Source: Craspedostauros australis (taxonomy: Eukaryota). From it: a stretch of 64,000 nt of DNA. Of this stretch, positions 1-57,608 are shown piece by piece (position 1 is the stretch's first letter; each line of letters starts with the position of its first letter). The notes under the pieces were generated by a model. That model worked only from the letters and a program-made list of their open reading frames with translations, searched no databases and had not been told where the DNA came from. Made by a program: the position numbers and the translations under genes. The stretch spans positions 1 through 64,000 of the forward strand of contig JALAGF010004161.1 of the NCBI GenBank assembly GCA_030167865.1, written 5' to 3'.

Positions 1-1770
1 CCATCCAACAGCACCAGCTTGATCGCGACACGTGGTGGGAACTGGCAGTTCGTGCACGGCATCAACAACGGAATCTTCCTCCTCAAGAGCAACGAATGGT
101 CGCTGCAGCATTGCTTCGACATCTTCACCGCCAAGTATGCGTACACCCGCTTCCTCGGCCGCACCCTCATCGACCAGCCGCTCCAGATGTCCGTGCTGCT
201 TGCTCAGAACGAGCTGCAGTGGCCGCCAAAGACGGAGCTGGAACGTGGCGCGCATGTCACCATCGTTCCCAAGCGCACCATGAACTCTTTCCGACGCGAG
301 CATTCCTTCAGCAGCGCAGACGAGAAGGAGGACGGCCAATGGCAACACGGCGACTTCATCGCTCATTTCGCGTCAGGAAAGAAGTACTCCTTGATGCTGG
401 ACCTTCTTGAAGAGGAGGGCCTCGCGAGTGAGATCCCGCCCGTTGAGGAACGATTCTCTTTCCCTCTCCCAGCCAAGGGCAAGGCATCGCGCACAGGACA
501 CTGCTGGTGCAACCACGCAGCTGGAAACTCCATCAACGGTGAAAACGAGCTTGACACGCCATCCAGCAGCGTCAGCTGCCTGCCATCGTACCACGTTGTC
601 GGTGTTCACAAGGCCGGTACCAAGTCCATCCTGCGGTACTTGAGCGGACATCCAGGTCTGGCGAGCACAGGGTACATCGAGGATCCAACCCGATGGCTGA
701 CGGAGAAGACCATGAAGGTGGAAGAAGAGCAATGCGCTGCGATGGCAAAGACAGCCGCGCCACACACTCCCAGCTTCCTCCAGAAACCAAGAACGAGGGT
801 CGTGTCCACATGCAGCTTCGATGACTACGCCTTGCTCAACGGCCAGGTATCCAACGGTGTCTGCTCCAGCCCCGCTTCCGCTTTTGCTCCCGCATCTGCT
901 GCTGCTGCCACAGCTGATTCTGGTGTTGGTGGTAGTGACGAAGACCTTGCCGTCTCCGCGGTTCCGTACTTCCCAGAGGAGGAGAAGCCGCTGTTCGATG
1001 AGATGAACATCTGGGACCACAGCTTTGACAAGATCCGCGGCGTGTCGCTACCAGAAGTTTTCCACCGCATGCAACCGGAGGCCAATCTTCTGGTCACTGT
1101 CCGCGATTCCGTTGACGTCACCTACTCAGCATACAACCACTTCGGAGTCTTCGCATCTCAAGACAGTGCCAGCACCAGCAATCAAGGCAGCAACAGCAAC
1201 ACCAAGAGCGACGGTGTCCAGAAGGGCCCGGCCCACTTTGACATGTACATCCGCAGCGTCGTTGTCACATGGACGCAGAACGGATGCACGGCCGCGAACT
1301 ATCGCAAGTGCCTGCCAAGCGACATGGTCCAGGCCGGCAGCTGGCTGTCGCGGGCGATGTATTCCAAGGTCTTCTCCGAGTGGTTGTCGCACTTCCAATG
1401 CTCTCAGGTCCATCTCTTTGATGTGTCCGTCGACCCGCGCACCGAGGTGGAACGCCTCTATGACTTCGTCGGCATGCCCAACAAGGCGGCCGCAGAGGAA
1501 GTGACACAGAGCACGTACACACTGCAATCCAACGCAACAGCAGCCGCCTCCTTTGGCGGCCGACGCGACAAGAACCCGATGAACAAGGCCTCGTACGATG
1601 CCATGCTGGATACGACGCGGCAATACCTGAACGAGTTCTACGGCACATTCGACGACGAGATGTGCGATCTGATGATCGAACATCCCTGTTTGGATGTTCC
1701 GCTGTTCCGACGCAAGTGCCAGATGAAGCAGGCCGATGTGTTGGACGGTGTCATGTCTCTGACGACGTGA
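1..1770 (+). CDS. 5'-truncated fusion: GT34 (MNN10/GMA12-like) glycosyltransferase C-terminal half + PAPS-dependent sulfotransferase domain
   Basis: Frame is open from base 1. GT34-like motifs GINNGIFLLKSNEWS, DQ, IVPKRTMNSF and WQHGDFIAHFAS. These are followed by the sulfotransferase 5'-PSB loop GVHKAGTKSILRYLSGHP and the 3'-PB motif VTVRDSVDVTYSAYNHF. Confidence 0.75.
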   Translation, partial: PSNSTSLIATRGGNWQFVHGINNGIFLLKSNEWSLQHCFDIFTAKYAYTRFLGRTLIDQPLQMSVLLAQNELQWPPKTELERGAHVTIVPKRTMNSFRREHSFSSADEKEDGQWQHGDFIAHFASGKKYSLMLDLLEEEGLASEIPPVEERFSFPLPAKGKASRTGHCWCNHAAGNSINGENELDTPSSSVSCLPSYHVVGVHKAGTKSILRYLSGHPGLASTGYIEDPTRWLTEKTMKVEEEQCAAMAKTAAPHTPSFLQKPRTRVVSTCSFDDYALLNGQVSNGVCSSPASAFAPASAAAATADSGVGGSDEDLAVSAVPYFPEEEKPLFDEMNIWDHSFDKIRGVSLPEVFHRMQPEANLLVTVRDSVDVTYSAYNHFGVFASQDSASTSNQGSNSNTKSDGVQKGPAHFDMYIRSVVVTWTQNGCTAANYRKCLPSDMVQAGSWLSRAMYSKVFSEWLSHFQCSQVHLFDVSVDPRTEVERLYDFVGMPNKAAAEEVTQSTYTLQSNATAAASFGGRRDKNPMNKASYDAMLDTTRQYLNEFYGTFDDEMCDLMIEHPCLDVPLFRRKCQMKQADVLDGVMSLTT

Positions 1771-3082
1771 TGGGCCCTGTCTGGGAGAACAAACTATTCT
1801 ACCAAAGAGTGGATGGATCGATGCAGGACCACGAGGAGCAATCACCTGCGTTGCAATTTTCATGGTGACAGCATCAGATCGTAATTATACATGAATACAC
1901 AATGCACACTCCACCCTGTACTATACCAACGATGATGATAACAGTTATAAACTATCATAATATATTCTCATAGAATACTATTCTATTCTATTTTTAATGT
2001 TACCACACAATAATACAAGATCTATATTGCAACACTAATCTTAACATTGAAAGCCCAATCGTATTTTCGTGCACTTTCCTGTGAGATGAAAATAACTTTT
2101 CTGGTCTTTCTTCTTGTTTTTGCGAATGTCGCATGCGACTCACGGACAGTCGTCCAACGCGAAGCGAAAACTCCGGTGTTTGGACACGATGAAATTTGGC
2201 GTCATCCACGACTTTGGGATGGCCGAAGACGGACGGTTGTGGTTGCGGTGTTAGTCCATCGAGTCGGGGTGGTGGATGTGGAATGAAATGATGACGCCAC
2301 CAACAATGTCCGTGTTGTGACTGATGGTTTTCATGCGATGACCTCTTGGGTGGAATTGTGACGATGACATGACACCGGATCAAGTGGCGACATGGGAAGA
2401 AAGGAAGGAAATCGAAGCGCCTCGGCAGCACGAAACGGCCTGGGCAGGGAAGGAGGTTGGGAGAAGTGAGCGGAGAGAGGCGGCAGCGGTGTCCGACTAT
2501 GGCAGTCCAACTCTTCTTGTTTGGCCGACCGAAGACAGGGGGATCCTCTTTGGCGTTCATTGGATGTGTATGCAAGGGCGTCGACGTTTGCTACCATTCA
2601 TTGACTCTCATCCTTAGAGTGCTTCGCCTTGTGCCAGCCGCTGTTAACATCGCGACAGTCATCAACAGTAACAGTGCCGCGAGTCTTCTCGTTTCGTCGC
2701 TGCACCGCAAGACCACAAGATCTTCGCCGAACGCGTTCATCTGAGAGCGAGCACAAGCATAAGCATCGCACCATCGATCTCTGCTTGACTTGTGGAAGGT
2801 TTGTGGACTGATTTGGACTGATTTGCCCAGACCAACCATCAGGGGCGACATCGAAAAGGCCTACTCTGCGCGGTTCGATCATTCGCGGCTTCTCCGGCGA
2901 AGTTTGCACGAAAGGAGGACTTGTCAGTTGTGCGAGTGCCAGGACGAGTGCGAGGACGAGTGCCAGGACGAGTGCGCAAGCCATCGCAACACCACCATCA
3001 CAGTCGGGGGCAGAGCGTCGACAAGCTCGACAGTCTCGCATCTCTCCCAATACTCCAGTGAGAATTGGAGAAAGTCGCCATC

Positions 3083-5325
3083 ATGGACATCAACAATGAC
3101 CAATCCGCACAGCAACAGCAACAGCAGCAGCAGAATGGCACTGCAGGGGCATCCGGTGGAACCCCCGCGGGTGCTTGCATGTCAGACGACGCTCAGAGGA
3201 AACGACGCAACTCCATCCGCGACATTCTGGCGGATGATACCCTGACGGACGCCGAGAAACGCAAGACCATCCAATCGCTGATGGACGGCCGACGACGATC
3301 CTCCAATGGCTCTGCGAGCAGCATGGGCGAGATGGCCCGTGCCGCGGCGGAGGCTGCCGAATTCTACAACAGCGACGCGGAAGGCGACCTCTCCGGCCAC
3401 TACAGGTCAGGAACCACGACGGCGACCTCCTCCGATGGCAGCATCTCCAACCATTCGCACAGGCTGCAAATGCTGGCGGATGCCAACCACGCCATCTCAC
3501 CATCTCGGCATGGCGGTGGCCACCTCAACAACGGCCAGCACAATCCATACAGCTACAACACGGACATGATGGACGTCGCTGCCGGGGGAAATGATCAGAG
3601 CAGCGATGGCAACCAGCAGCAGCGCCGACAGCGTTCCTCCTCCCTCCCGTTATGGAGCGACAACAGCGTCCAGGCCGTGGCGCCATTGGCCGCCGCGTCG
3701 TCCAACATCTGGGACGACCCCATCAACGTCAATCGGCGTATGGAAAAGTCACGTCCCATATGTCATCACTACGAACGCAACTGCACCATCATCAGTCCCT
3801 GCTGCGGGTTGGCATTCGGATGTCGCTTTTGTCACGATGAATGCCCCATACTGCCGCTGCCCTTCAACAAGCGACAGAACACGCAGCAGCAGAAACAGCA
3901 TCACACGCAGGTGGCGTGGACGGAGAACAGCACGTCCTGCGCGCCCAAGCGGAGGCAGGAGAAGCGCCCGTCGCTGCCGCTGGGGTTTGATGAAGAGGAG
4001 ACGCATCATGAAATTGATCGCTTTGCCATACGCGAAGTTATATGTCGATTATGCTACGTGCGGCAACCGAGCAAGACGTGAGTGTTTGACAGTGTACAAT
4101 ATCCAGGCAGCATGTGCGCAAGATGCATTTCCGAAGTCTGCATCAGTGCTTTTTGTTTCGAATACCAACAGGGAGAGGAAATGAGTCACAACAGGATGGT
4201 TCTTGGAAGGAGTTTGTGACAGTATGCCACGTGGGGGATTCATACGGGTGCGGTCACATAATCTGAAACGACCACATCGCGACAGTGGTGGCAACCCCGG
4301 TTGGATTCTTTCGTGGTTCCATGGATTGGAAATTGGCTTGATCTCATCTTGCATGGACAAAATTAACTGGAAACTCGATGTCCTCTGCAACGTTCTCACA
4401 TTTTGTACCCACAAATTAATCCTTGCTGTCTCGACGAATCAATTCTGTTGACATACAACTTCCTACGCCGTTGGGTGCACCGGACGTATGATACGACACG
4501 ACACGATGTCACCTCTGCATCACCCCGCGATTGCATGCAATTGATTCAAAAACACCGTACTCTATGCACATACGTGCACTCTACAGCAACTTTTGCAACA
4601 CATGCCAAGTCCAGTTCGGTGCGTACCACTGCGGCATATGCAACTTGTGGATGTCCGACGAGGAGGATCCGTACCATTGCAGCGAATGTGGATTTTGTCG
4701 TGTTGGCGGCCGCGAGAACTTTCGGCACTGCAACGATTGCGGGATGTGCATCGACATTCAGCTGTTCGACGATCACAACTGCAAGGTGGGCAAGTACATG
4801 TCCAACTGTCCCGTTTGTCAGGAGGACTTGTTCTCCAGCCGCGACGCGTCGCACGAGATGCCGTGCGGGCATGCCATCCACTGGCATTGCTTCCGCGAGC
4901 TGACGAGCTACGACACGCGATGCCCCGTGTGCAAAAAGACGGCCGAAACGCCCGAGCACATGGCACCGACGTGGCAGGCCATGGCCATGGGCATTGCCCT
5001 GCAGCCCGTGCCAGCCGAGTTGGCGCGCGTCGTTACCATCATGTGCAACGATTGCGAGCAGCGCGACGATGATCGGCGGTGGCACTTTCTGGGCGTGCGG
5101 TGTACGAATTGCATGAGCTTCAACACGACGGTCGAGCAGACCACGATGTCGGGACGCGAAGCGGCGGCGTATCTGGATGAGCTGGACCGAACGCGTGGGG
5201 TTGGGGATAACGGCACGGCCGATGGGAGCGCCGGGATGGGTGCCGGCACAGATGCGGACATGCAAGCCACTGATGGTGGCAACTTGAATGCGGAGGCGGA
5301 CGATCCGATGGACGATGATTTGTGA
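3083..5325 (+). CDS. CHY zinc finger/CTCHY/RING E3 ubiquitin ligase (Pirh2/RCHY1-like); exons 3083-4077 and 4587-5325
   Basis: CHHYERNC..PCC..CRFCHDE..HEIDRF (CHY), YHCGICNLW..YHCSECGFCRVG (CTCHY), CPVCQEDL..CGHAIHWHC..CPVC (RING) and the zinc ribbon CNDC..HFLGVRC..C. Intron 4078-4586 (GTGAGT...CTACAG) joins the two ORFs in frame. Confidence 0.92.
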
Positions 5326-5494: not shown

Positions 5495-6646
5495 CTACTT
5501 GGCATTATCGGCAACAATCTCCTCGAGCTCCTCCAACATTTGCTCGCCCGGATACAGCTTGCCGTTGATCTCCCATGTTGGATATCCCGGAACATCCTTG
5601 ACCTTGCAAAGCTTGGCCTGCGAGTTGATGCCATCCTTGCTGCATTCAACGTAAGGGATATTCGCAAAGGCCTCCTGACCGAACGCCTCCTTCTGATCGA
5701 AGCAATGCGAGCACCAGTACGCGCCGTACATCCTGGCATCCAACGCGGCCAGACCTGTCGACAGTTCCATGGCGCGCTGCGTCGACGTCGTGCGGATGGT
5801 GGGCGGCGAAAACAACGTGACGCCGTCGGCCGTCGTCGTCGAAGATATCGTCGCGGCCGATTGTGAAGCGACGCTGTCATCGACGCTGACGAACAGGACG
5901 ATGGCCGCCATGGTCGTGGCCAAGAAACTGGCGCCGGCGGCGCGAGCACCCAGCTTGGAATTCGGTGGCAGACATCCGCCGAGCCATGCCAGTTTGGCCA
6001 GGATGACCGAGCATGCCGCCGAGAAGACGCAGAAGGGACATTCCTGCTGCAGCACGCCGTACAGCAAGGTCATGAGGAAGATGGAGAATGTGCCCATGGC
6101 GGTCGTCAACGTCGTCAACATGACGCGGTTCTGCGTGTCGTCCGCCGCAGCCGCATCATCGTCCTTGAGGGGACTCAGCGCCAGCGCCGCGACTGTGGCG
6201 TACGCTGCGAATCCGACGGCGGCGAGAGGAATGCCCGTGAACGGGATGTTGGAGTACGGACCGTTGAGCACATCGTTGCAACCGCCAGCCTCGGCGACGG
6301 TGCCGCACAGTGCCACCTGTCCGTTGCCGATCAGCTTGGTGGCAGTGAGGTAGGCAGTCTCGGCGGCACCGGCCAGCGCAACACCCGCCATGACCTTGCG
6401 CAGTTTGGGCAGCCAGATGATGGGCTGTTCCTCATTGTTGTCGATACTCGAATGCAATCGATGGTGGCTGTTGCGCTGCTTGCCAATGCGCATGTGATTG
6501 GCAACGGAGAACGGCGCATGCTGTACTGCAATGTGTCTGGACTCTGTCGTGGCGAATTGCGATGCTGCCGACGAAGCTGGAGCGAAAGCAGCTGCGCCTG
6601 CAGCCGATGTGATCAGCAGCAATGATAGCAACTGCCTGCTGGACAT
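5495..6646 (-). CDS. LTO1: Plastid VKOR-thioredoxin fusion, thylakoid lumen thiol oxidoreductase (LTO1-like)
   Basis: Signal peptide followed by AAAFAP (ASAFAP-type bipartite presequence). VKOR domain ETAYLT..C..GCNDVLNGPYS with TM helices and CPFC. C-terminal Trx-like domain MYGAYWCSHC..YVEC..C..GYPTWEING. Confidence 0.9.
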   Translation of the reverse strand: MSSRQLLSLLLITSAAGAAAFAPASSAASQFATTESRHIAVQHAPFSVANHMRIGKQRNSHHRLHSSIDNNEEQPIIWLPKLRKVMAGVALAGAAETAYLTATKLIGNGQVALCGTVAEAGGCNDVLNGPYSNIPFTGIPLAAVGFAAYATVAALALSPLKDDDAAAADDTQNRVMLTTLTTAMGTFSIFLMTLLYGVLQQECPFCVFSAACSVILAKLAWLGGCLPPNSKLGARAAGASFLATTMAAIVLFVSVDDSVASQSAATISSTTTADGVTLFSPPTIRTTSTQRAMELSTGLAALDARMYGAYWCSHCFDQKEAFGQEAFANIPYVECSKDGINSQAKLCKVKDVPGYPTWEINGKLYPGEQMLEELEEIVADNAK

Positions 6647-7308
6647 GATGGACGTGTTCGAAGAGGAAGCACAAGGAAGTATAATATCAGTTTGGGACCT
6701 CAACTCAACCCGTGGATGGTGGAATAGCAGAGGTGCTATGGAGATGGGAGGAGTGGAGCACGCTGCTTCTTGGTCTGATCTGTCCCTCTGCCTGTCTGCA
6801 CGAGTATTGTTGTCTTTTGTTGGTTGTCGCGGGCCATTTGATTGTGTTCATCGATCCGAAGTGGAACGACATTCAACCACACCAAAGCGTTCGTACACGT
6901 CACAAACACAACCCGCTGTGGGAGTTGCGGTTATTAAATCGAATTAGATGATATTTTGAACAATCGTAAATGGGTCCATGTGGTCAATTTGATTAACATG
7001 ATCAACGTTTTTGTTCCACCAATTCTGCCACCAACGCGAAAACACGATGCGCGACACGTGGGCCAGCAACAACACCGACATCGATTTTGGAGACTGACAA
7101 TGACGACGGCGACCATGTGGCGATGGAAGAGGGAACGGCAACTCATGCGCCACAGCTGCAGTCAGAGTAAAGATCCGTAAGTAGTATCCGCACAACTCAT
7201 TCATTCAGTGTTTCATTTATTCGTCCACTGCACTGACACCCAAGATACCATCACAACAAGCTCAAGCACAAGCCTAAGTACAACAAACGAACGAACTGGA
7301 GAGCAACA

Positions 7309-39319: not shown

Positions 39320-41311
39320 TCATTGGAAGAATGAACCCATCAGCAGTGACATTGAGCAACACAGAAGCATTGAAAATGTCCCCATCATTTTCCAAGAAAG
39401 AGATGATGACGACGACGATGGCGTCGATGGCGCCTCATTCGTCGGTTTGCCCTTGTCGGTTGGTTCGGTGTCATCTTGGCTCGACTCGAGGGCTGGCTTG
39501 TCCTCCTCTTTGTTCGGAATCCGAGGCGGATCCTCTTCCTTTGGTGGAGTGGGATCCTCGGGCAGACCACCCACGTTGAATTCCATGATGGTGCCTGATT
39601 TGGAAAAGTTCCCGATGAAGACCCCCGTCGCCTCAATCACCCCATTTTGGTAGCTGTCCGTGTTGGGATACCTGACGGTCTTCTGATTCGTCTGCTTTCC
39701 TGGACCAAGGTCTCTGCCCTCCATCCAGAAGTCACCGGCGTCGCCGTTATTCACAGCCCTTTCGAGATCGTAGTTGCCATCCGCCTGCAGCAAAGCGACT
39801 CGATAGTGATGTCCGTTGCTCGGCCACGACAATGCGGACGCACCCGTGGCATTTGCTGCCAACGACAAACCAGGAAACCCACGCATGCCATTCCTGCGGA
39901 TGTCTGGCATCGAATCGTCGATGTGCCAAATGAGGATGCCGCCCGATCGCTGCATCCCCACGTCGAACAGGATCGGCTGTCGGTTCTCGATCAGAAGGTA
40001 CTCGCCTTCCGGGTACCCATGCGTAACCTTGAAGACCTGATCAGATGATGCGGCCGCATGGACCGCATAGGCGCCGCTGTATTGGATGACTTGCGGCTCC
40101 AGCCAACCGAGCCTGGCCTTCGACCAGGCCGAGAGGAAACCTGGATACGATGGATTCATTGAGGCACCGAATGGATTCGACATGATGTCGTACGAACCGG
40201 CACCGCCGACAGCACCGGACAAGGTGTCCAAAGGCCCGTCGGCGTCAAAGAGATCAGGCAATCCCATGGTGTGGAGGAGCTCGTGAGCGAGAAGACCGAT
40301 CTTGGCCATGTTGTTGCCGCAGGCACCATCGTACGCCGAGGAAACGGTGAAGGTTCCGAGCCGATAGTTGCTGTCAGACGACTTCCATGCCTGCCTCTCC
40401 GAAAGTTGGAGTGAGTGGGACCATATTCGATCCCTGGCCTGATCGGGTGGCACGCAGCTGGGTGAACCGAACTCCGCACCATGCCCGGAATGGAGCAGCA
40501 CCACGGAGTCCAGCACGCCATCGCCATCTTGGTCAAACTCCGTCCAATCGAAGCCGTTGGTGTCCATCTCGTTCAGAATCGGCAGGATGGCGTCGCCCAT
40601 TCGATTGCTCTGCGTACTTTCCGAGAATTTCAGCTGCGATCGTGGCAGTCCGTGCACCTCGTTGGCAAAGAAGGTTTCTGGCATGTGAGACGTCTTCCAG
40701 GGAATGACCGTGGCCTCCATGTGCAACTTGCCGTACGAATTGATCCGCATGAAGCTCGCCAACGATCCTGATGGGACCAACGTGCTCCTCATTTCGGCAT
40801 TGAATAACTTGTTGAGGTCTTCAGTTGAGATCAAGGCTTTCGCTGACGCGGCAGCCTGCTGCGTACTTGACGCTCTCGCCGTTGCTGTGTCGTCTGATGC
40901 CCAATCCACCAACAGAACCAGCACCTTGAGATTCCCTGATTGCTGCACGAGTTTCTTCGTCTTGTCGGCCTGCGCCAACATCTGGCCATCCAGCTGCCTG
41001 CAATCCTCATCTGACAGATGTAGGCAGACGCTGGGGTGGACGAACGATGGCCCGAAATCCTTCGACGTGCTCTTCATCTCGGCGTCCTCGAGGAGTCGAG
41101 TCATGGTCCCCTGCGGCGTGATCTCCATCGCCACTTCATCCTGGTGTACCGTATTGCCACCGCCTGTTTCAAACAGGGCGCGCGCAGGGATGATGCCTTG
41201 CACCTCCACTGCGCCGATGACGAAGACGGCCAGTAGCAGCAGCAGACCGGTGTGCGTCCAGCTCGAAACCGTCGCTCCAACGGGTGATGTCGCCATCGTC
41301 GTTGTTGCCAT
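39320..41311 (-). CDS. Secreted M6 family (immune inhibitor A-like) metalloprotease
   Basis: Signal peptide; LKVLVLLVDW, FDQDGDGVLD, HSGHGAEFG, IWSH, zinc motif HELLHTMGLPDLFD, YDIMS, EYLLIENRQ; hydrophobic C-terminal tail. Confidence 0.9.
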   Translation of the reverse strand: MATTTMATSPVGATVSSWTHTGLLLLLAVFVIGAVEVQGIIPARALFETGGGNTVHQDEVAMEITPQGTMTRLLEDAEMKSTSKDFGPSFVHPSVCLHLSDEDCRQLDGQMLAQADKTKKLVQQSGNLKVLVLLVDWASDDTATARASSTQQAAASAKALISTEDLNKLFNAEMRSTLVPSGSLASFMRINSYGKLHMEATVIPWKTSHMPETFFANEVHGLPRSQLKFSESTQSNRMGDAILPILNEMDTNGFDWTEFDQDGDGVLDSVVLLHSGHGAEFGSPSCVPPDQARDRIWSHSLQLSERQAWKSSDSNYRLGTFTVSSAYDGACGNNMAKIGLLAHELLHTMGLPDLFDADGPLDTLSGAVGGAGSYDIMSNPFGASMNPSYPGFLSAWSKARLGWLEPQVIQYSGAYAVHAAASSDQVFKVTHGYPEGEYLLIENRQPILFDVGMQRSGGILIWHIDDSMPDIRRNGMRGFPGLSLAANATGASALSWPSNGHHYRVALLQADGNYDLERAVNNGDAGDFWMEGRDLGPGKQTNQKTVRYPNTDSYQNGVIEATGVFIGNFSKSGTIMEFNVGGLPEDPTPPKEEDPPRIPNKEEDKPALESSQDDTEPTDKGKPTNEAPSTPSSSSSSLSWKMMGTFSMLLCCSMSLLMGSFFQ

Positions 41312-41959
41312 GATCTTGACTCGGTTCTGTGAACTTCTTTGCCGTGGCCTGTCTGAGCGTGAAAGTCTTGGCGTCAATGACACACTGTGTGTATGCTTCG
41401 GTATTTGTCGGGTGTGCAGGAGCAGCAACGAGTGCCCAGATCAGTAGGGACAGAGCAGTGGTCTCGTCCACTTGATGGGAGGATGTGGTGCAGAGATGCG
41501 TTGTACAGAGAGTAGAGTGCAGTCGTTGAGACCAGAGTAACGCGACACCCAAGCAACATGCACCCACTCCGCATCATCAGTGACACACGAGAGATGGTGA
41601 CAACCAACGTCCCCACTCTCTTGATTGGGTTTGGTTTGGGTTGGATTGGTTTGGATTGGAACTTTTTTGTTTTCGTGAGTTTGCGCATCCGACCCAACGC
41701 ATATGAAGCGTTATTACGGTTATAGTTAAATATCGCGAACCAATCGAATACAGGCAGACTGAAATGAAGCCGGGGGTGAAGGTTAGACTAAATTAATGAT
41801 GTATTAAAAACGGATTGCGGACACACTGAAATGGACCAGATATCTCAGCAGTCAATCAAACCCATCACAAACCGAAACACACCTTGTTCCACACATCGAA
41901 CTGGACAAGGCCGAGCACCAGGCATCGAGCATTGAGCATCGACGGGGGCAGTGCTACCA

Positions 41960-44277
41960 ATGTTGGCGATGACGGCGATGACGGCGACAACTGCAAGAGC
42001 GGTGACGAATGCAGTGTCAAAGATGATGGCTACGAGTAGGTTGGGAGTTGGAAGATCTCGCCGCTGTTCGAGGCTTCTCGACAATGCCTTCGTGTCTGCG
42101 ATACGGTGAGTCGATGCTCTGAGACGAGTATGTTGATGGAAGATGAATGGAGCCATCTCATGCATACTGTCACAGTCATGTGCGCAGAACTGTGCAATGC
42201 TGCTCTGGGTAGTATGCCATCGCCTGTGTGTGATACTGACACGACATGCTCCCAATGCCAACATGCATTCTCATGAATCGGCGCAACAAACTTGACTACC
42301 ACGCGTACAATTCACGCTTCGGACAGGACTTGGGCACCTCCAACACAGCTGCAGATATCACCATTTTCATCGTTTGGCATTCGCGGTGACAACCAGATCT
42401 GTAAGCCATGCACTGGGCTGGAGCAACTTCAGAAATGGAAGCAAACAAATGCGTTTGGGTCAGTGGCTTGGTATTCATCGAGCAGGCCAACGCAACTATC
42501 TCAGCGGCAGCAACGGCGGCAGACCTCCAGAGACGAGCTCGTTGTGTCCATCTTGGGACCACCGAACGCAGGCAAATCAACGCTGTTCAACCGACTGCAG
42601 TGCAAGCAGCGCAACAAGACGTACAGGCTGGGTTCTGAAAGCAGCTCGAAGCATCTGAAGAAAGGCAAGGGCCGGGTGGGATCGAATCACCGTGCGACCG
42701 GCGGCGCCCTGGTTTCGTCCATTGCGGGTACGACGCGCGATCGGCGTCAGATGTGGGGCAGGATCGGCGGGACCACATTCTCCATGATGGACACGGCGGG
42801 AGTCGATGGCGATCGAATCGGCCTGCTGTTCGCGGGCAAGAAGAAGCAGGCGAAGAATCCCGTGGAGCTGGCGATGATCCAGCAAACGCTGGAGGCGACG
42901 AAGCAGTGCGACATCGTGTTCCTGATGTTCGATGCCAAGGTGGGCGTGACGCAGGACTTGGAAGAAACGGCCAGGTGGTTGCGCAAGCTGCCGAACCGAC
43001 CCGAGGTGGCGGTGCTGGCAAACAAGCTGGAAGGGGACCGGTGGTCTTACGAAGGGTCGCCCGTGCTGGACCATCTCGACGAGGCGTTGCGGTTGGGATT
43101 CGGCGAAGCTGTCGTGATCTCCGCAGAACATGGCGAAGGCATGGCAGATATTGCGATCATCTTGGAGCAGCTGATGGACAAGCGACGGCATGAGATCGAT
43201 CTCGCCATATCCAAAATCAACGAGAGCGCTGAGGAGGATGGGTACGATAGCACCAATGCCGATGAAGATGAACATGTAGATGAAGGCGAAGATGACGAGA
43301 TGGACAAACCTTTGCAGCTCGCCATATTGGGGCGGCAGAATGTTGGCAAGTCCACCCTTGTCAACGAGATCCTGCAGAAGCAGCGCGTGATCACGGGCGA
43401 CACGCCTGGCTTGACTCGAGACGCCATCACCATCCCATGGGAATGGAACGGACGTCCCGTCCAGATCGTGGACACGGCTGGAATTCGGAAGATGTCCCAC
43501 CGCTTCGATGATACGATCGAGAACATGTCCGTCGCCGATGCTCTGCGGGCGATGAAGCTGGCGGACGTCGGCGTCCTGGTGCTTGATGCCGGCGAGCTGT
43601 ACCTGCAGAGGCAGGAGCTGGCGATCGCGGATGCGATCATCCAGGAAGGCCGGGCGTTGGTGGTCGCAGCCAACAAGATGGACCTGCTGGAGATGGACGG
43701 TGCGGAGTACACTCCCGAAGCGTTCGCAACCGCGGTGCAAGAGCAGCTGGAACAACGCATCCCGATGCTGCGCCAGACACCCATCGTCCCCATGAGCTGC
43801 CTCACGGGCGAGAATGTGAAGGGCCTCATGCCGGTGGTGTTCCGTGCGCGCGATCGATGGGCCCGCAAAGTATCGACCGGAACGCTGAACGGGTGGTTGA
43901 AGGAAGTGCTGAATGGCGCGCCGTCTCCCGTGGTTTCTGGCGTCACAAGCAAGATCAAGTACATCATCCAGACGAAGGGTCGCCCGCCAACTTTCCTGCT
44001 GTTCTGCAACGTGAGCGAGCTTCCCGAAACGTACCTGCGCTACCTCACGAGGAACTTCCAGGAGACGTTCGGAATGTACGGCATGCAGGTGAGGCTGGTG
44101 GTGAAGAAGAGCGCCGAAAACCCATTCGCGAGCAGAAACGCATACGGCAGGCTGATGAACCGCAAAGGATCAGGCGTTGGTGGCAAGAAGTCGCGCAAGC
44201 AACGCACCATCAACCTGCTCAAGACCACGGGAACTAACAAGATGCAACGCAGGAAGAAACGCAGACACAGGCGATGA
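41960..44277 (+). CDS. der: Double GTPase Der/EngA, probably mitochondrial; exons 41960-42105 and 42327-44277
   Basis: Two G-domains (GPPNAGKST/GTTRD/DTAG/NKLE and GRQNVGKST/GLTRD/DTAG/NKMD) plus a KH-like C-terminal domain. An upstream Arg/Ser/Ala-rich exon joins in frame through intron 42106-42326 (GTGAGT...GACAG). Confidence 0.92.
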
Positions 44278-44817
44278 TCCTCAGTTCTTCCATTCCATTC
44301 CATAATGTAATAAAATACTATGGAATACTATACACTATTGGCATAGTGTTTATGTATTGCATTCAAGCAGCAGCAGCAGCACAGAGGAGAGTGTACGAGC
44401 AACTCGGCAGAACAGCGGCATGTCGTTGCGTTTCCTTTGCAGATCCTCGCGCCAAAACGTGACCACCTGATTGGATGGGTATGCACGATTCAAGTGGAGC
44501 CAACGAGAACGTGCACGTTTGGCGCACGTCAACGTTTGGAGGAATGGGAACATGGTGTGATTTGATGTGTGGGCGTCAGCAACAGCAACAGCAACAGCAC
44601 CAACAAAGATGATGTGGGCAGGCAGGAGCAACGACACTTCGGAAAGAGGCCCATGTGGGATACACCACGAGTATAGTGGAACGAAGGGCAGGGCAGATCA
44701 ACTGACAAGCAGGGTGCGCATTCGTCGCAGCAGGTGCACTCTCCGCAGATTGCAACCATCGATACCAACACTTGATCTTTGTGGCAGCGCACGCTTGCGT
44801 CCCGCTCAAGATCGTCC

Positions 44818-45573
44818 ATGCTGCGTTGCTCGCTGTTTTGGTTGAGCCTTCTGGCCTTGGTATTCGCAAACGGGGCCTTTGATCCTCAGACTCCGCCACC
44901 ACCAGCAATCACACCACCATCGCAAGGCTCCGCCAAGATGAAGATCCAGGCCATCGTGCAGATCGCCGTCACCGTGGATGGCTTGATCGCGGAACCCGAC
45001 GGAGGTGTGGGATTTCTCGATATGTATCCAGCCTGCGAGGGCGACAACTTTGATTTTTCCGGATTCCTGGATTCCATCGATGTGATCATCATGGGACGCA
45101 ATACGTTCGACATGGTCGTGTCGTTCGGCGAGGATATGTACGCGTACCGTGACATCAAGATGGTGGTCTGCAGCCGAGATCCATCGCGCGTCGTCATCCC
45201 CGAGTTCTTGCGCAAGACCGTGTCGGCCAGTTGCGAGACGCCGAGGAAGATGCTGCAGAGACTGGAAGATGATGGATTCCGTCGCGCCTACGTCGATGGC
45301 GGCATCACGATCCAGAGATTCCTACGAGAGGATTGCATCCATCGTCTCATTCTGACACGTGTGCCGTTGCTGTTGGGTGCTGGCATCCCTCTCTTTGCCA
45401 ATGGCAGTGTGGTGGCCGGCAACGACAGCGGCGACGGTAATGATCGCGGCAACGGAAGCGGCAGCGACAAGGATGGTAACACTGTTTCTGTTGATCCCAC
45501 GAAGTTGGATCACATCGAGACGAAGACGTACCAGAATGGCTTGGTCACCACAACTTACGATGTCAAGCCATGA
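44818..45573 (+). CDS. Bacterial-type dihydrofolate reductase-like (RibD_C domain) protein with N-terminal signal peptide
   Basis: IAVTVDGLIA..DGG, IMGRNTFD, YVDGG..IQRFL, TRVPLLLGAGIPLF, YQNGLV. Alternative start at 44938 (MKIQ). Confidence 0.85.
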   Translation: MLRCSLFWLSLLALVFANGAFDPQTPPPPAITPPSQGSAKMKIQAIVQIAVTVDGLIAEPDGGVGFLDMYPACEGDNFDFSGFLDSIDVIIMGRNTFDMVVSFGEDMYAYRDIKMVVCSRDPSRVVIPEFLRKTVSASCETPRKMLQRLEDDGFRRAYVDGGITIQRFLREDCIHRLILTRVPLLLGAGIPLFANGSVVAGNDSGDGNDRGNGSGSDKDGNTVSVDPTKLDHIETKTYQNGLVTTTYDVKP

Positions 45574-52780: not shown

Positions 52781-54673
52781 CTACCAAACAAAATAGGCAT
52801 CGGAGGCGCCGCGCCTTGAACCACCGCCACCATATGGGCTCGTGCTGCGATACTTCGACTTCTCCTTGCGCTTCTGCTCTTCTCGCGTTCCGCGTTCGAG
52901 GAGCTTCGTGCAGACGTTGGCAAGGTGGGAGTCGTTGCGTTGCGCCGCGATGCGCTGGAAGAGACGGAACGAGCTCATGGCCTTGACGTCGTCCAAGGAG
53001 CCGAACAAACGGCGCAGCGTGTTGCCGTTCTCCAGCTGTTCGAGGATGGCCTCGAGCATCGTGAGGTAGTTGGTGCGCAGGTTGACGCCGCGACGGTACT
53101 TGTCGTCGAGGAAGGCATGGGCGGCCTCGTCCGTGCGCAGGCAGTAGCGGCGGTTCATGACGGAGCCGCGTTCCACGCCGTCCACGATGTATGGCGCGGT
53201 GGGGATGACGAACCAGAACCAGCAGGATTCCTTGTGGCCCTCGTTGATCTCCTGCAACGCGTCCTCAAAGACCTCCATCTGCGGAATGACGAAGCGCTCC
53301 ATGAGATCGTGCGGGTCGTCATCGGGGTCGGACTCGTCGTCGGTGTAGGAGTCGCGGTGGTGGCTGCTGAGGGACGGCGAGTCGTCGTCCGATGATCTGA
53401 CCTTCTTGTGCGACTTGCGGCCACCGCGCGGCGATTTGGAACTGATGCTGGATCTGCCACGCCCAGAAGGACTGTCGGCCTTGCTGCCGGATGAGCGCCG
53501 GCGCGAGCTGCTGCGCTTGGAGGAGCGCTGGCTGTCGCTGAGATCCGGAGAGTCGGTGCGCTCACGTCCGTTGTCAGAGTCGCCGTCGTCGTGGCGATTG
53601 CCATGCTTGCTGCCGGATATGGTGCTGAAGAAGGTTTTGAGGATGGACTTGGTGCCCGACTTGGAGCGTCGCAGCTGCGTCTTGTCGGATCGTTTGTTCT
53701 TGTCAAACGGCGACAGGGATTGGCTCGATGTGTGCTTCAACGCGTGGGTTCGCGCGTGCACCATGGAGGGGACTGAGCCTGATGATGGTGATGACTTGAC
53801 ATAGTCCTTCATCAGCGTCTGCTTGAAGGGGCGACGCGGGGTGGACAACATCTCCTCGGTCTGGTCAGGTGTTGCGGCCTCCTTCTTGCGTCGTTCAGGT
53901 GTCCGGGCACGTCCGCGTCCGCGTTCTCGTCCTCGGCTGTCGCTGCTTGCTGGTGGAGGAGAGTCTGCCTTTGGACCTTCGATGGATGAGCTTGCGTTTG
54001 GGGGTTGGGACGTTGCAGGTTGTTGATTGCCACTCGGTCCTGTCTCGCATCGTTGTTCGAGCTCCTTCTTCGTGGCAGCTTGGTCCAGGGCTTGTGAGAG
54101 GAGGCTCTTGGTATCAGCCGAAGGTTCTGGCTGACGCTGTGGTTCCTTGAGTGGTTGCTTGTCTGACTGCTTGTCTGGTGACTCCAGCTTTGCAGTTGGT
54201 CCAGCCTTGGGGCTGACGTCGCCCTCAGGTGAGGTTGAATCGGTCGATGTCCGAATATCGATGCGCGCCGATGCAGCAGCTGTTGTCGAAGATGGCTTAG
54301 ATGTGGGCTTAGATGTGGATCGAGGTGATTCTTTGTGAACGACAACCACCAAATCTTCAGCAGGACTGTGATGGTGGTTGCTCTGCTTGGTTGGCGGTGA
54401 CAGGGTCTGCGTTGTGCCGTCGCGATCGCCTTCTGCTACTTCGCCAATGCGTCTCTTGGCCTGGGGTGATGGAAGTTGCGACTTTGTGGCAATGTTGTTG
54501 CGATTGTCACGTGAAGGATCAGCCTCGGAACTTGTTGTGGGTGGTGTTGCTGTTACTTTGTGATGCTCCAGCGTTCCGGAGGTGATGTGTGGAAGGTCAG
54601 GTCCGTAAGTTGGATCGTCAATGTTCCAGCCTCCCGTACTGTGAGATTCTCGAGGGGGACCTGTCGGCGACAT
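52781..54673 (-). CDS. Disordered Ser/Arg/Pro-rich protein with C-terminal DUF1810-like domain
   Basis: DLMERFVIPQ..FEDALQEINEGHKESCWFWFVIP..RYCLRTDEAAHAFL..LFGSLDDVKAMSSFRLF. Start taken at MSPTGPP. Confidence 0.8.
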   Translation of the reverse strand: MSPTGPPRESHSTGGWNIDDPTYGPDLPHITSGTLEHHKVTATPPTTSSEADPSRDNRNNIATKSQLPSPQAKRRIGEVAEGDRDGTTQTLSPPTKQSNHHHSPAEDLVVVVHKESPRSTSKPTSKPSSTTAAASARIDIRTSTDSTSPEGDVSPKAGPTAKLESPDKQSDKQPLKEPQRQPEPSADTKSLLSQALDQAATKKELEQRCETGPSGNQQPATSQPPNASSSIEGPKADSPPPASSDSRGRERGRGRARTPERRKKEAATPDQTEEMLSTPRRPFKQTLMKDYVKSSPSSGSVPSMVHARTHALKHTSSQSLSPFDKNKRSDKTQLRRSKSGTKSILKTFFSTISGSKHGNRHDDGDSDNGRERTDSPDLSDSQRSSKRSSSRRRSSGSKADSPSGRGRSSISSKSPRGGRKSHKKVRSSDDDSPSLSSHHRDSYTDDESDPDDDPHDLMERFVIPQMEVFEDALQEINEGHKESCWFWFVIPTAPYIVDGVERGSVMNRRYCLRTDEAAHAFLDDKYRRGVNLRTNYLTMLEAILEQLENGNTLRRLFGSLDDVKAMSSFRLFQRIAAQRNDSHLANVCTKLLERGTREEQKRKEKSKYRSTSPYGGGGSRRGASDAYFVW

Positions 54674-57608
54674 TTTAGTGCCTTGGGTTGTTGTTGTCTC
54701 GATTACTCTGTCGGGCTGGGTTGGGTCGATGAGCGTAGAATGCCTACAGCAGTTCTGCGTAGAGTATTTGTGTTGGTACAACGGGAACTGTGATACAGTC
54801 AAGCGCTTGTGGAGAAGGGCAGATTGGCTTTGAGCCGATTGGGGCACAAGATGAAAGGTGGAAGGAAGCCGTTGGAAACACCAGAATAATCCGAGTCCTT
54901 GCATGGAGAGAGGTTGGAACGGTATGGTACGGTACGATACCCACACTTCGTGCTCTACTCGCGTTTGCGGCAGCCACAGACTCAACTGTTGCTGAGAGGG
55001 TGGTTGATGGATACGGACAGGGGTGGTATGGATGTTGTTGCCGTTGTTGCCGTTGTCGATGCTGTTGTTCACAAGGGAGAAAAAGGAAGAAGACGATGAT
55101 GGTGTGGGTCTGCGGCTACATGCGCATGTGCGTATGTGAGCGAGTGCGGATGCGGATGGCAATGCCGCAAGTCTGCTAAATTGCGAATGTTGCTGCGATG
55201 GATGGATCAAATGGTGTGTGGTTGTCGCTGGTGCCTTGCATTCCCTCTCTCTCTCTTGCTCGCTCTCTCTTTTTGGTTTGGTCGTGTGATGATGGCTGCG
55301 ACGCGAGGTGGACTGCGAGAAGCGTTAAGAGCATGGTACTAATACTCGTACGACTACACATGTGGCACTATTCGTCCCACCACACGAACTCCTTCTCGTT
55401 TCGTGTTCTTGGCTGGTTGTGTTGCCGTGGTGGGATGGCTGACCAAGAGACACATGTTCGCACACGCAACTCGCCACGAAACGAAACTTCGAAGGCGTTC
55501 GTTCGTTGGACATGGCGTAACCACGGCGGTAACCCCGTTGTTGGCCCTGAGACAATTGCGAGGAACTTAGCGGCACTCCGTCAATTAACGCATGTCGTGC
55601 AGCACAATTAACCGCGTCGCTTTTTAGCTACTCCCACCATACACACATCATCATGGAACAGAGAAAATCTGGCACAAACTACGAAATTATCGCAAACAGA
55701 CTAACAGACAAACACATCGCTCCAGTCAAATTCGCACGCACACGCAGACGTGGTCGTCCAACACGAATTTGGTACGATCCGGACAAAAGCAATGAAGTGC
55801 TTAGCGTAGGGTAGCGTGGAATTCCACGATGTCGTTGTGAAGCCTCGCCAAGCAATATCGAATGTCCGTCACCGTGTCGTGTCTGACATCGGCTTATCAT
55901 CACCTGTTCTCCCACAAACATGTTGGTACATAGCACAACAGAGCGCCGTCGTTGTTGGATGTCGTGTGGCACAATTCGGAGGTTTGTGGGACACCGGACT
56001 AACACTGTCGCAACGGCGAAGGAAATACAGACGTGTATATCAATTGCATAAGATAGGCCTTCCTTTATATCTATTTCGCTCAATCGAAACAAGGTGAATG
56101 ATCACGACATTTAAAGCTATTAGTGCGTGCATCTTGTTTATCCCTCATTTCGTTCGTTGGTTCCAGCAACAGCCCAGACATGCAGAACGCAAGGAGCCTT
56201 TGTCCCTTCCGTGGATTCCAAACAGAAGAACAACAGAACCAGTCACAAAACGAGACAACACCAACACAACGAAGCGACACAGAGAGGAGAACAACAATCA
56301 GGACAGCAATCAGAGCGACATCAACAACAACCAAAGTGGAACAAAAGAACGAAACCCAACTCACAAGCACCAACCGTGCGCACAATGATCTCTTGCGCGT
56401 GGGAGCCAACAACCCCCGTCGGGTATCGCGTCCATGTGCTGCCCCATGCCAGCATCCACAGTCCATGGCATCAGTAACCGTATCAGCACTGACGAGGAGA
56501 GAGAGCGACAGAGAGTAAACCAGCGATCGTGTTGAAACCGGAGCAGCGAATCCACACAATCGCGTGTCCATTTCAGGTCCTCCTCATACCAAGGACAATA
56601 CGATGACGTACCCCGCATGAGGCTCTGCTGGTGTTGATGGAAGATGGAAGATGAAGACGAAATCAACACCAGGTACAGGATCTCACATGACACGACTTCC
56701 CTGCTGGTCCCTTTCTACGTAACACGAAGGTGCGACCATGGCATCGGGCGATGCTACGGGTGACACCAACTCCTCTCCTGCCTGCTCGATGCAGCTGGAC
56801 CGTTCGCGAGCGGCACCCCGAGTTGAGAACTCTCCGTTGCAACAGCGCGATCAAGCTGCACGATGGATGATGCAATCTTCCGCCTCTGCCAGAGATGAAA
56901 AGCACACCAAGACCCACCTTGGCATGACGGTACCGTTTAGCCACAAGGACGACACGCACGGAAACGCCTGGTAAACTTGGGCCAAACAGACGGCGAAGAA
57001 AAGGAGGAAGAAGCATCGCGGGTGCTCCAGACGCGCCCGAAAACGTCCATCACGGCTTTGCGATGCGCTGCGATAACGCGCATGGATGAGGCAAAGGGAG
57101 TCCACCATTGTGGGTATTCCAAGGGATTCCCAGAACAGGCATCGTCGTCCAACTTGAGGCGCGATTGAGGGAACAAGGCACAAGGATCAAAGTGCCATCA
57201 TCGCGGAGTCGTCGAAGGTGGAGGTTTCTCCTTGGAACCTGAGAGGGATGGATGCTGGTCTACGCGTTTCATACATTGCCATGACTACTACACTATACTA
57301 TACTTCATGTGCAACCAACACAGGGAATGGCGCGCAACCTTCGGAGCACTTCATGTGAAGGCACCTTCTGCCGAGCGCTGTTGGATCACAAGATGGTACT
57401 CCACATGCAAGACCCTCCATCGTGCCCCGACCGCACGGCTATGTTGAGCGCATGAGCGGAACGCAGCACAGGATCCAACTTCGGCCGACGAATCCATGCT
57501 CCACGATCAGCATCAGAGTTCTCCACACTCGTACTTCACCCCCTTCGGATGCGCGTACACGGACCGCCTAAAGCGATCACGCGAACTGCTGCTGCTTCGT
57601 CTTCTACT

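Follow-up and report, generated by a model that had tools for sequence, protein, structure and literature searches.

Does the open frame at the very start of the window, the 64,000-nucleotide stretch of DNA analysed here, encode one protein in which a glycosyltransferase of family GT34 is joined to a sulfotransferase, and could the two domains of such a protein act on the same glycan? The first-pass annotation had described a GT34-type domain, a linker and a sulfotransferase in a single frame, and had proposed an enzyme that adds a sugar and then a sulfate. Sulfated polysaccharides abound in the walls and exudates of diatoms; a review considers branched sulfated glucuronomannans to be probably ubiquitous in the walls, describes EPS as capable of being sulfated, and has 0 occurrences of sulfotransferases (PMC4584364). 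Diatom sulfotransferases are listed in a second source, in whose available text the words "fusion" and "fused" have 0 occurrences (PMC4659905). Likewise, GT34 is not mentioned in PMC11468063 nor sulfotransferases in PMC5932028, and our literature search found no paper on a GT34-sulfotransferase protein or assigning genes to the sulfation steps of diatom glycans. A single protein tying glycosyl transfer to sulfation narrows this search, since the sugar added by the GT34 domain is likely to lie at or next to the sulfation site. Both domain families are already known, fusions of an enzyme with a sulfotransferase have precedents such as NDST1, and the fusion proteins themselves are already present in public databases under automatic Pfam labels. 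Here we report that the window starts inside a real gene of diatom type, which encodes one protein with a GT34 domain and a sulfotransferase domain, and that this pairing is conserved.

Reading frame and coding signal

Frame 1 of the forward strand is open from base 1, as expected from the earlier proposal that the N-terminus lies outside the window, and runs uninterrupted through 589 codons to a TGA at 1768-1770, with the motifs of both halves in the same frame. The GC content at third codon positions (GC3) is 0.63-0.87 in each 180-nt block, with an overall GC of about 0.56, and the DNA directly past the stop codon is AT-rich; because GC3 is steadily high, the whole frame, including the linker, looks coding. 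The missing 5' part of the gene, which would comprise the cytosolic tail, the membrane anchor, the stem and the first two-thirds of the GT34 domain with its DxD motif, is upstream of the window. The product of the frame, hereafter the window protein, contains 13 cysteines, six of them invariant, which is consistent with a lumenal, disulfide-bonded protein. The features of the gene are collected in Table 1.

Table 1. Position of the features recognized in the fusion gene (aa, residues of the window protein)
Feature	Position (nt)	Strand	Evidence
3' part of the GT34-sulfotransferase fusion CDS	1..1770	+	Open frame, GC3, homologue alignments
C-terminal third of the GT34 (GMA12/MNN10-type, GT-A fold) domain, aa 1-145	1..435	+	Pfam, full-length homologues, homologue model
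INNGIFLLKSNEWS motif, aa 21-34; N22-N23-G24 invariant	61..102	+	19/19 covering sequences
D58-Q59-P60, invariant GT34-domain motif	172..180	+	19/19 covering sequences
WQHGDFIAHFAS, aa 114-125; invariant His122 at nt 364-366	340..375	+	19/19 covering sequences
Conserved Cys-rich linker	436..591	+	Alignment, GC3, models
Lineage-specific insert inside the linker	511..576	+	Alignment
PAPS-dependent sulfotransferase domain (heparan-sulfate 3-OST/NDST-like fold), aa ~194-575	580..1725	+	Pfam, Foldseek, profile
5'-phosphosulfate-binding motif HVVGVHKAGTKSIL, aa 198-211; K204, G206, T207, K208	592..633	+	Profile vs 3-OST-1
Low-complexity Ala/Ser-rich insert, missing in most homologues; modelled disordered, pLDDT below 50	862..981	+	Alignment, model
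3'-phosphate-binding motif LLVTVRDSVDVTYSAYNH, aa 363-380; R368, S376	1087..1140	+	Profile vs 3-OST-1
Ser/Asn-rich insert past the 3'-phosphate-binding helix, missing in most homologues	1153..1221	+	Alignment; gapless in run X1 contig

In the sequencing run X1, whose kind was guessed, 24% of the sampled words are present, and four of its contigs cover nt 1117-1907 at ~97% identity, showing no joints and ending short of the GT34 part. No RNA bridging both domains was found for the source organism, this span being that of the sole matching run. In-frame introns were considered as the source of the three inserts specific to the window protein, and were ruled out by the high GC3 throughout and by the gapless X1 contig over the last of them; the 475 candidate GT...AG pairs were uninformative. 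The genomic neighbourhood (an E3 ligase, VKOR, a peptidase, a GTPase and a helicase) holds no genes of glycan or sulfate metabolism.

The GT34 domain

The match of the window protein to PF05637 (Glyco_transf_34) amounts to 16.5 bits, where 23 are needed for the cut-off, and extends over aa 18-125, which correspond to positions 141-230 of the 238 in the profile; the score is low because the fragment holds only the last third of the domain. The assignment to GT34 is therefore based on full-length homologues, which reach 23-42 bits, and on the structure model of one of them, so that the Pfam comparison suggested in the first-pass annotation succeeded for GT34 in the relatives but fell short in the window protein itself. 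The NNG and DQP motifs and His122 are kept in 13/13 sequences of one alignment and in 19/19 of a wider family set. From the role of its presumed counterpart in XXT1, His122 may supply the third ligand to the metal in the GT-A site. A D-A-D, a motif of the DxD type, is present in 12/12 relatives that cover the site, which in this gene would lie upstream of base 1 of the window.

In the window protein's own model the GT34 piece has a pLDDT below 50. The model of P0004, a homologue of 827 aa that is 47% identical to the window protein, has a pLDDT of 85 and a pTM of 0.81, with a helix at 79-100, and among glycosyltransferase structures it best matches XXT1, an enzyme of GT34 (6bsu, E 1.1e-5), with PBCV-1 A64R and then the glycogenins next in rank. 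The match of the family profile to XXT5 (9p3j) is weak (E 0.098), and the GT34 part is very divergent in this family, which matches the Pfam model at E values from 1e-5 to 1e-11 only.

The sulfotransferase domain and the linker

The sulfotransferase region, which makes up the C-terminal two-thirds of the window protein, reaches 24.3 bits against PF00685 (Sulfotransfer_1, cut-off 22) over aa 357-503, in agreement with the first-pass annotation, and 22.4 bits against Sulfotransfer_3, under the cut-off of 27. Both PAPS-binding motifs claimed in the first-pass annotation were recovered in register with the solved structure of 3-OST-1: a family profile (E 1e-9) places HVVGVHKAGTKSIL on the stretch IIGVRKGGTRALL, where a P-loop of the type K-x-G-T/S-K/R past the first strand served as the criterion for the 5'-phosphosulfate-binding motif, and places LLVTVRDSVDVTYSAYNH on the stretch LLLILRDPSERVLSDY. 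For the 3'-phosphate-binding motif, VTVRDSVDVTYSAY, with R368 and S376, is aligned to LRDPSERVLSDY of 3-OST-1 under the criterion of an R...S strand and helix. The window copy is canonical at all six PAPS-binding positions (K204, G206, T207, K208, R368 and S376).

The sulfotransferase core is modelled with a pLDDT of 80-94, and a Foldseek search with this model gave 21 matches at E<=1e-3, with NDST1 (8ccy, E 2e-7), 1nst, 3rnl, 1vkj and 3uan at the top and the enzymes 3-OST-1/3/5 among them. In absolute terms the sequence similarity is weak, amounting to 24-44 bits and ~12-16% identity to solved enzymes. In 3-OST-1 and NDST1 a glutamate acts as catalytic base. The HMMER alignment to 3-OST-1 ends short of the region of the catalytic base, for which E227, within IEDPTRW, is a candidate; this position holds E in 7/13 and D in 2/13 family sequences and is not conserved family-wide.

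The linker and junction between the two halves contain eight invariant residues (P146, R151, G166, C168, W169, C193, P195 and H198), and the linker is modelled as a beta-hairpin running into the sulfotransferase sheet.

Homologues and evidence for a single chain

Homologues of 720-865 aa are 34-48% identical to the window protein from end to end, and 12 of the 15 sequence homologues align over both halves, covering 84-98% of the query. The proposed order of domains is borne out by homologues that cover 97% of the window protein and carry PF05637 together with PF00685 or PF13469. Considered separately, PF05637 is found at cut-off in 11/15 homologues, with P0012 at 22.1 bits and P0013-15 without a GT part, and PF00685 or PF13469 reaches its cut-off in 10/15; both families are at cut-off in 8/15, to which 4/6 further cluster members are added, all six of these having PF05637 at cut-off. 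The membrane anchor and the DxD motif that the first-pass annotation suggested looking for upstream are present in the homologues: one hydrophobic 19-mer (KD 1.77-2.68) is found 130-190 residues before the DxD in 10/15 fusion proteins, the rest being N-truncated or borderline, and the motif takes the form of the D-A-D described above.

That one transcript may span both domains was established in relatives. MMETSP transcripts encode single ORFs of 829, 860, 854 and 782 aa, of which three reach the cut-offs for both domains and the remaining one, P0174, scores 26.5 against the Sulfotransfer_3 cut-off of 27. Five of eight loci of relatives are contigs of 2.7-3.0 kb, each with one uninterrupted ORF of 777-808 aa, and in two genomic loci short introns alone separate the halves. 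The first-pass annotation had considered that the N-terminal part might show no GT34 relationship or that transcripts might reveal two separate genes; instead, full-length relatives score 23-42 bits for this family and their assembled transcripts hold both domains in one ORF. Two forms, P0014 and P0015, consist of the sulfotransferase only, with the linker retained and an anchor of their own, and coupling of the two domains is thus not obligatory.

The fusion family is small. Only two organisms are named among the 15 matches, the diatoms Thalassiosira oceanica and Thalassionema frauenfeldii; proteins of Phaeodactylum or T. pseudonana are not among them. In a profile search for remoter fusions, 0/19 long, distant matches had both a GT34 and a sulfotransferase domain; the combinations seen were ST+RCC1, GT34+DUF273, GT64+methyltransferase, GT34+FKBP and similar. 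Matches in the ESM Atlas all score 0.82 or below and are leads only, among them a bacterial cluster labelled "sulfotransferase / nucleotide-diphospho-sugar transferase" and a Chlorophyta GT32 cluster with Sulfotransfer_3 in 12% of its members.

Discussion

We consider it probable that the product of this nuclear gene of diatom type is a type II protein of the Golgi, in which a GT34 domain, followed by a PAPS-dependent sulfotransferase, adds a sugar and the same glycan is then sulfated. In such a membrane protein, two lumenal catalytic domains would be carried on one chain. The GT34 domain, predicted to be a retaining GT-A glycosyltransferase with D-A-D, NNG, DQP and His motifs, would use a nucleotide sugar as donor to attach an alpha-linked sugar to the growing glycan, and past the Cys-rich linker the tethered carbohydrate sulfotransferase, putatively of the heparan-sulfate 3-OST/NDST type, would carry out O-sulfation of the same glycan nearby. 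With both domains tethered on the same glycan, glycosylation and sulfation would be coupled in space. The Golgi location, the two activities, their action on a shared substrate, the sequence of the two steps and the nature of the glycan are inferred, and the glycan may be the sulfated glucuronomannan of the wall, a sulfated EPS or the glycans of glycoproteins. As an enzyme for the synthesis of the sulfated polymers in diatom walls or slime the fusion is a good candidate, and it can be targeted directly by knock-out and by in vitro assays.

The CAZy family GT34 (PF05637, GMA12/MNN10) includes the alpha-1,2-galactosyltransferase Gma12p of S. pombe, Mnn10 and Mnn11 of yeast, and the xyloglucan xylosyltransferases XXT1 and XXT5 of plants (6bsu, 9p3j). 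Relatives in the fusion family resemble these enzymes in the DxD-type motif, in a histidine conserved towards the C-terminus of the domain and in the type II anchor, but are highly divergent and have a sulfotransferase attached; none of the named GT34 enzymes is known to have one. On the sulfotransferase side, 3-OST-1/3/5 (1vkj, 3uan, 1t8t, 3bd9) are the best PDB profile matches (E 1e-9), have both PAPS motifs in register and belong to the top Foldseek group, whereas the low identity noted above, the large low-complexity inserts and the extra Cys-rich N-terminal hairpin set the fusion apart from them. Diatoms are not known to contain heparan sulfate. NDST1 (8ccy, 9f6z, 1nst), a bifunctional heparan-sulfate N-deacetylase/N-sulfotransferase whose first reaction makes the substrate of the second, is the top Foldseek match and follows the design proposed for the fusion, since in this type II protein of the Golgi a domain that modifies glycans precedes the sulfotransferase; in contrast to the fusion, its N-terminal partner is a deacetylase, and the homology concerns the sulfotransferase domains only. 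An mRNA-supported fusion of a sulfotransferase and an alpha/beta-hydrolase is described for Nemacystus decipiens (PMC6418280); it likewise joins a stramenopile sulfotransferase domain to an enzyme of a presumed sulfated-polysaccharide pathway, but the partner is a hydrolase and the organism a brown alga, and the likeness is one of design. In view of NDST1 and of this brown-algal protein, the earlier remark that a carbohydrate sulfotransferase is normally a protein of its own needs to be qualified, since other fusions with an enzyme exist.

Three other explanations have to be weighed. An artefactual single frame, arising from chance read-through of two adjacent genes, from an assembly join or from a pseudogene, is hardly credible: the 5' end is absent, the junction lacks RNA from the source organism, and several relatives (P0018, P0019, P0021) are split or truncated models in the databases, but the arrangement is colinear with an invariant junction in 12 of 15 homologues, both domains lie together on assembled transcripts and in five complete, uninterrupted ORFs from relatives, GC3 is high over the junction and the 589 codons contain no stop. 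A reading as two genes or as an artefact was rejected on the colinearity, the transcripts and the uninterrupted ORFs. It is also improbable, if less so, that both domains are active on different substrates or at different steps, for example wall-protein N- or O-glycans for the GT34 domain and a polysaccharide for the sulfotransferase, with the fusion serving only co-localisation or shared regulation. In yeast, the mannan of glycoproteins is the substrate of GT34 enzymes, and the sulfotransferase-only paralogues P0014 and P0015 show that the module can work alone; against this, the short, structured and conserved junction and the pTM of the P0004 model suggest a fixed mutual arrangement and not beads on a string, and by analogy with NDST1 the product of the first domain may be the substrate of the second.

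Somewhat more plausible, though still rather unlikely, is a genuine fusion in which only the GT34 domain is catalytic and the sulfotransferase fold is a non-catalytic module, which would, for example, bind PAP, PAPS or an already sulfated glycan to position the glycosyltransferase or would have a structural or dimerisation role. In fact, the GT34 motifs are invariant in 19/19 sequences while all six PAPS positions are canonical in 13/23 only, the degenerate forms occupy at least three separate places in the tree, and the domain is kept even where the usual binding of PAPS is impossible. PAPS-binding residues are replaced in 10/23 relatives, so that catalysis by the sulfotransferase domain is not required in every member of the family. 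A precedent is reported for B4GALNT3, in which a PA14 accessory domain that binds sulfated glycans is attached to a glycosyltransferase (PMC13018970). Nevertheless, the window copy and its nearest relatives retain all six PAPS-binding residues, the domain of the window protein reaches the Sulfotransfer_1 cut-off, and the tree is midpoint-rooted and displayed without support values.

A wider proposal can be put forward tentatively, and we would not expect it to hold as a whole: that the diatom lineage invented the combination of side-chain glycosylation and sulfation in one Golgi enzyme, which would build the sulfated branch of wall glucuronomannan or of carbon-sequestering secreted polysaccharides. 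If true, it would provide the first gene-level handle on the synthesis of sulfated polysaccharides in diatoms. That the sulfotransferase site has decayed repeatedly beside an intact GT34 site is in itself a natural experiment on the contribution of the second domain and, if the wider proposal were true, the paralogues whose PAPS site has decayed would be natural "readers", in which a dead sulfotransferase domain recognises the sulfated glycan and guides the GT34 domain.

Results

On the + strand, frame 1 runs without interruption from base 1 of the window to its TGA (1768-1770), a run of 589 codons with no stop upstream, and all the motifs quoted in the first-pass annotation, which had read this frame as a fusion of a GT34-like glycosyltransferase and a sulfotransferase, were found in it. 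GC3 is 0.63-0.87 in each 180-nt block, against an overall GC of approximately 0.56, and the DNA immediately 3' of the TGA is AT-rich; therefore nt 1..1770 looks like a single coding exon, linker and three low-complexity inserts included. The GT34 score of the window protein remains below threshold because just the final third of that domain is present.

Features of the window (aa, residues of the frame counted from base 1; other positions in nt)
Feature	Position	Strand	Score or source
Motif INNGIFLLKSNEWS	aa 21-34	+	window frame
Motif WQHGDFIAHFAS	aa 114-125	+	window frame
Motif HVVGVHKAGTKSIL	aa 198-211	+	window frame
Motif LLVTVRDSVDVTYSAYNH	aa 363-380	+	window frame
Glyco_transf_34 (profile positions 141-230 of 238)	aa 18-125		16.5 bits, cut-off 23; Pfam
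Sulfotransfer_3	aa 355-385		22.4 bits, cut-off 27; Pfam
Sulfotransfer_1	aa 357-503		24.3 bits, cut-off 22; Pfam
CHY zinc finger ORF, long Gln/Ser-rich N-terminus	3065-4081	+	Pfam
RING + zinc-ribbon_6 ORF	4531-5325	+	Pfam
Vitamin K epoxide reductase (VKOR) domain, 402-aa ORF	5498-6703	-	87 bits
ORF without Pfam family, 791 aa	10193-12565	+	
ORF without Pfam family, 1131 aa	18739-22131	-	
Peptidase M6 (immune inhibitor A) catalytic domain, 702-aa ORF	39323-41428	-	Pfam
EngA/Der-type double GTPase with KH-like domain	42292-44274	+	Pfam
RibD_C-domain protein	44779-45570	+	Pfam
809-aa ORF, DUF1810 C-terminal	52784-55210	-	Pfam
DEAD/Helicase_C protein, >1168 aa, runs past window end	60494-64000	+	Pfam

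A word-indexed search with the window protein returned 15 homologues, 12 of which extend across the two halves of the query at 34-48% identity and 84-98% coverage and are mostly 720-865 aa long. Upon Pfam re-scan, 11 of the 15 reached the GT34 cut-off (best 41.8 bits over profile 30-230), 10 a sulfotransferase cut-off and eight both, and among six additional cluster members GT34 was at cut-off in all and both domains in four. In a 13-sequence alignment (A1), residue 1 of the window protein falls midway through the GT34 domain of the homologues and the alignment continues to the C-terminus across a conserved inter-domain junction, with P146, R151, G166, C168, W169, C193, P195 and H198 invariant. 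The DxD and membrane anchor to be sought in the missing N-terminal part, according to the first-pass annotation, have counterparts in relatives: D-A-D lies upstream of the position of the window start in 12/12 sequences covering the site, and a single hydrophobic segment, predicted to be a type II anchor, precedes it by 130-190 residues in 10 of 15 fusion proteins, the remaining five being N-truncated or borderline. At the level of sequence, the relatives settle the predicted GT34-sulfotransferase architecture.

The evidence that both domains share one transcript in relatives is good. MMETSP transcript assemblies hold ORFs of 829, 860, 854 and 782 aa, with both domains at cut-off in three, the fourth (P0174) scoring 26.5 against 27 for Sulfotransfer_3. 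Five of eight loci are contigs of 2.7-3.0 kb, each with short flanks around a single, unbroken Met-to-stop ORF of 777-808 aa. Two others come from the genome of a Thalassiosira oceanica-like relative, where the halves are colinear and interrupted by short introns only. In these two loci (L006:756-2524 and L007:2-1941) one short intron lies inside the inter-domain linker, and an in-frame insertion of approximately 22 codons splits the DxD; this is probably an intron left unspliced in the database model P0016. For the window itself, X1, the sole sequencing run matching the stretch, extends over nt 1117-1907 and is not certain to be RNA. Relative to the window, its contigs display 18 listed single-letter differences and, in what is presumably the 3' UTR, an insertion of 9 nt after 1836, a pattern that fits a different allele or strain; one of them departs from the window entirely beyond 1907.

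Structure prediction for the window protein was good in the sulfotransferase core only (pLDDT 80-94), the truncated glycosyltransferase piece staying below 50. In Foldseek this model matched the sulfotransferase domain of the bifunctional heparan-sulfate (HS) N-deacetylase/N-sulfotransferase NDST1 (8ccy, E 2e-7), 1nst, the bacterial sulfotransferase 3rnl and the HS 3-O-sulfotransferases 3-OST-1/3/5. For the full-length homologue P0004, an alignment of 54 sequences yielded a confident model (pLDDT 85, pTM 0.81, helix 79-100) that matches the same sulfotransferases; its N-terminal domain retrieves the GT34 xylosyltransferase XXT1 (6bsu, E 1.1e-5), then PBCV-1 A64R glycosyltransferase and glycogenins, all retaining GT-A enzymes. 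Against PDB sequences the window protein found weak 3-OST matches only (E 2e-3); the family profile reached 3-OST-1 at E 1e-9, with the 5'-phosphosulfate- and 3'-phosphate-binding motifs aligned onto their counterparts, and weakly XXT5 (E 0.098). E227, outside the 3-OST-1 alignment, is only a candidate catalytic base.

A motif survey took in 25 sequences. All 19 that cover the GT34 motifs NNG, DQP and His carry them unchanged. Of the 23 that cover all six PAPS-binding positions, only 13 are canonical throughout; P0013 and P0023 reach just R368 and S376, and are canonical there. The window copy carries the canonical residues, K-G-T-K / R / S. Replacements occur in P0006, P0009-P0012, P0016, P0022, P0028, P0173 and L002:176-2509, which fall in at least three separate parts of a FastTree tree rooted at its midpoint and read irrespective of support values; this scatter suggests that the domain turned into a pseudo-sulfotransferase more than once. 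P0014 and P0015 are sulfotransferase-only proteins with their own hydrophobic N-terminus, retaining the Cys-rich linker found after GT34 in the fusion proteins; either GT34 was lost secondarily or the genes are mis-modelled. Given the invariant GT34 motifs, the variable PAPS site and the sulfotransferase-only forms, the glycosyltransferase half is under the tighter constraint. In the window lineage the sulfotransferase half is a predicted enzyme, and in some paralogues it appears to be retained for another role.

Searching 1.84 billion representatives exhaustively with the profile yielded 3624 matches at E<=1e-3, of which only 30 reached E<=1e-30. Five of the representatives cover both domains, the others in the top group being single-half fragments; matches weaker than approximately 1e-29 are GT34-only or sulfotransferase-only, and none of 19 long distant matches combines the two. 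The named members come from two diatoms, the pennate Thalassionema frauenfeldii and the centric Thalassiosira oceanica. Therefore the family appears to be small and, judging from its named members, carried by diatoms; since most members lack an organism name, other lineages may carry it too.

Discussion

Architecture, motifs, folds and the conservation of the fusion are direct observations, and from these we infer a putative type II Golgi protein in which the GT34 domain would add an alpha-linked sugar and the tethered sulfotransferase would then sulfate the same glycan. The design would be analogous to that of NDST1, where the first domain produces the substrate of the second. Diatom walls contain a sulfated glucuronomannan thought to be ubiquitous, as well as sulfated EPS, according to passages of PMC4584364, and both are reasonable putative substrates. 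The fusion may represent a candidate entry point to diatom sulfated-glycan synthesis.

No description of this architecture was found in the portions consulted of the literature on diatom GT34/sulfotransferases or GT-ST fusions, including PMC4659905, PMC11468063, PMC5932028 and PMC4584364, whose supplements may list such genes. The sulfotransferase-hydrolase fusion of a brown alga (PMC6418280) is a related idea, as is NDST1. Fusion proteins are already present in public databases under automatic Pfam labels.

The hexapeptide ASAFAP, named in the abstract of PMC4329603 as a cleavage motif for diatom plastid targeting, occurs at 871-888 (aa 291-296), within low-complexity sequence inserted into the sulfotransferase domain; being internal, it is almost certainly coincidental.

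A Pfam scan of 23 long ORFs in the window gave no hint of the fusion's mechanism or glycan among its neighbors; 14 of them, in the region 9260-38638, have no family at E<=1e-4. Peptidase M6 is best known from bacteria, and the context of the ORF found here is apparently eukaryotic nuclear. The CHY and RING/zinc-ribbon_6 ORFs, which between them have the domains expected of a Pirh2/RCHY1-type E3 ligase, are probably one gene with an intron of approximately 450 bp between them.
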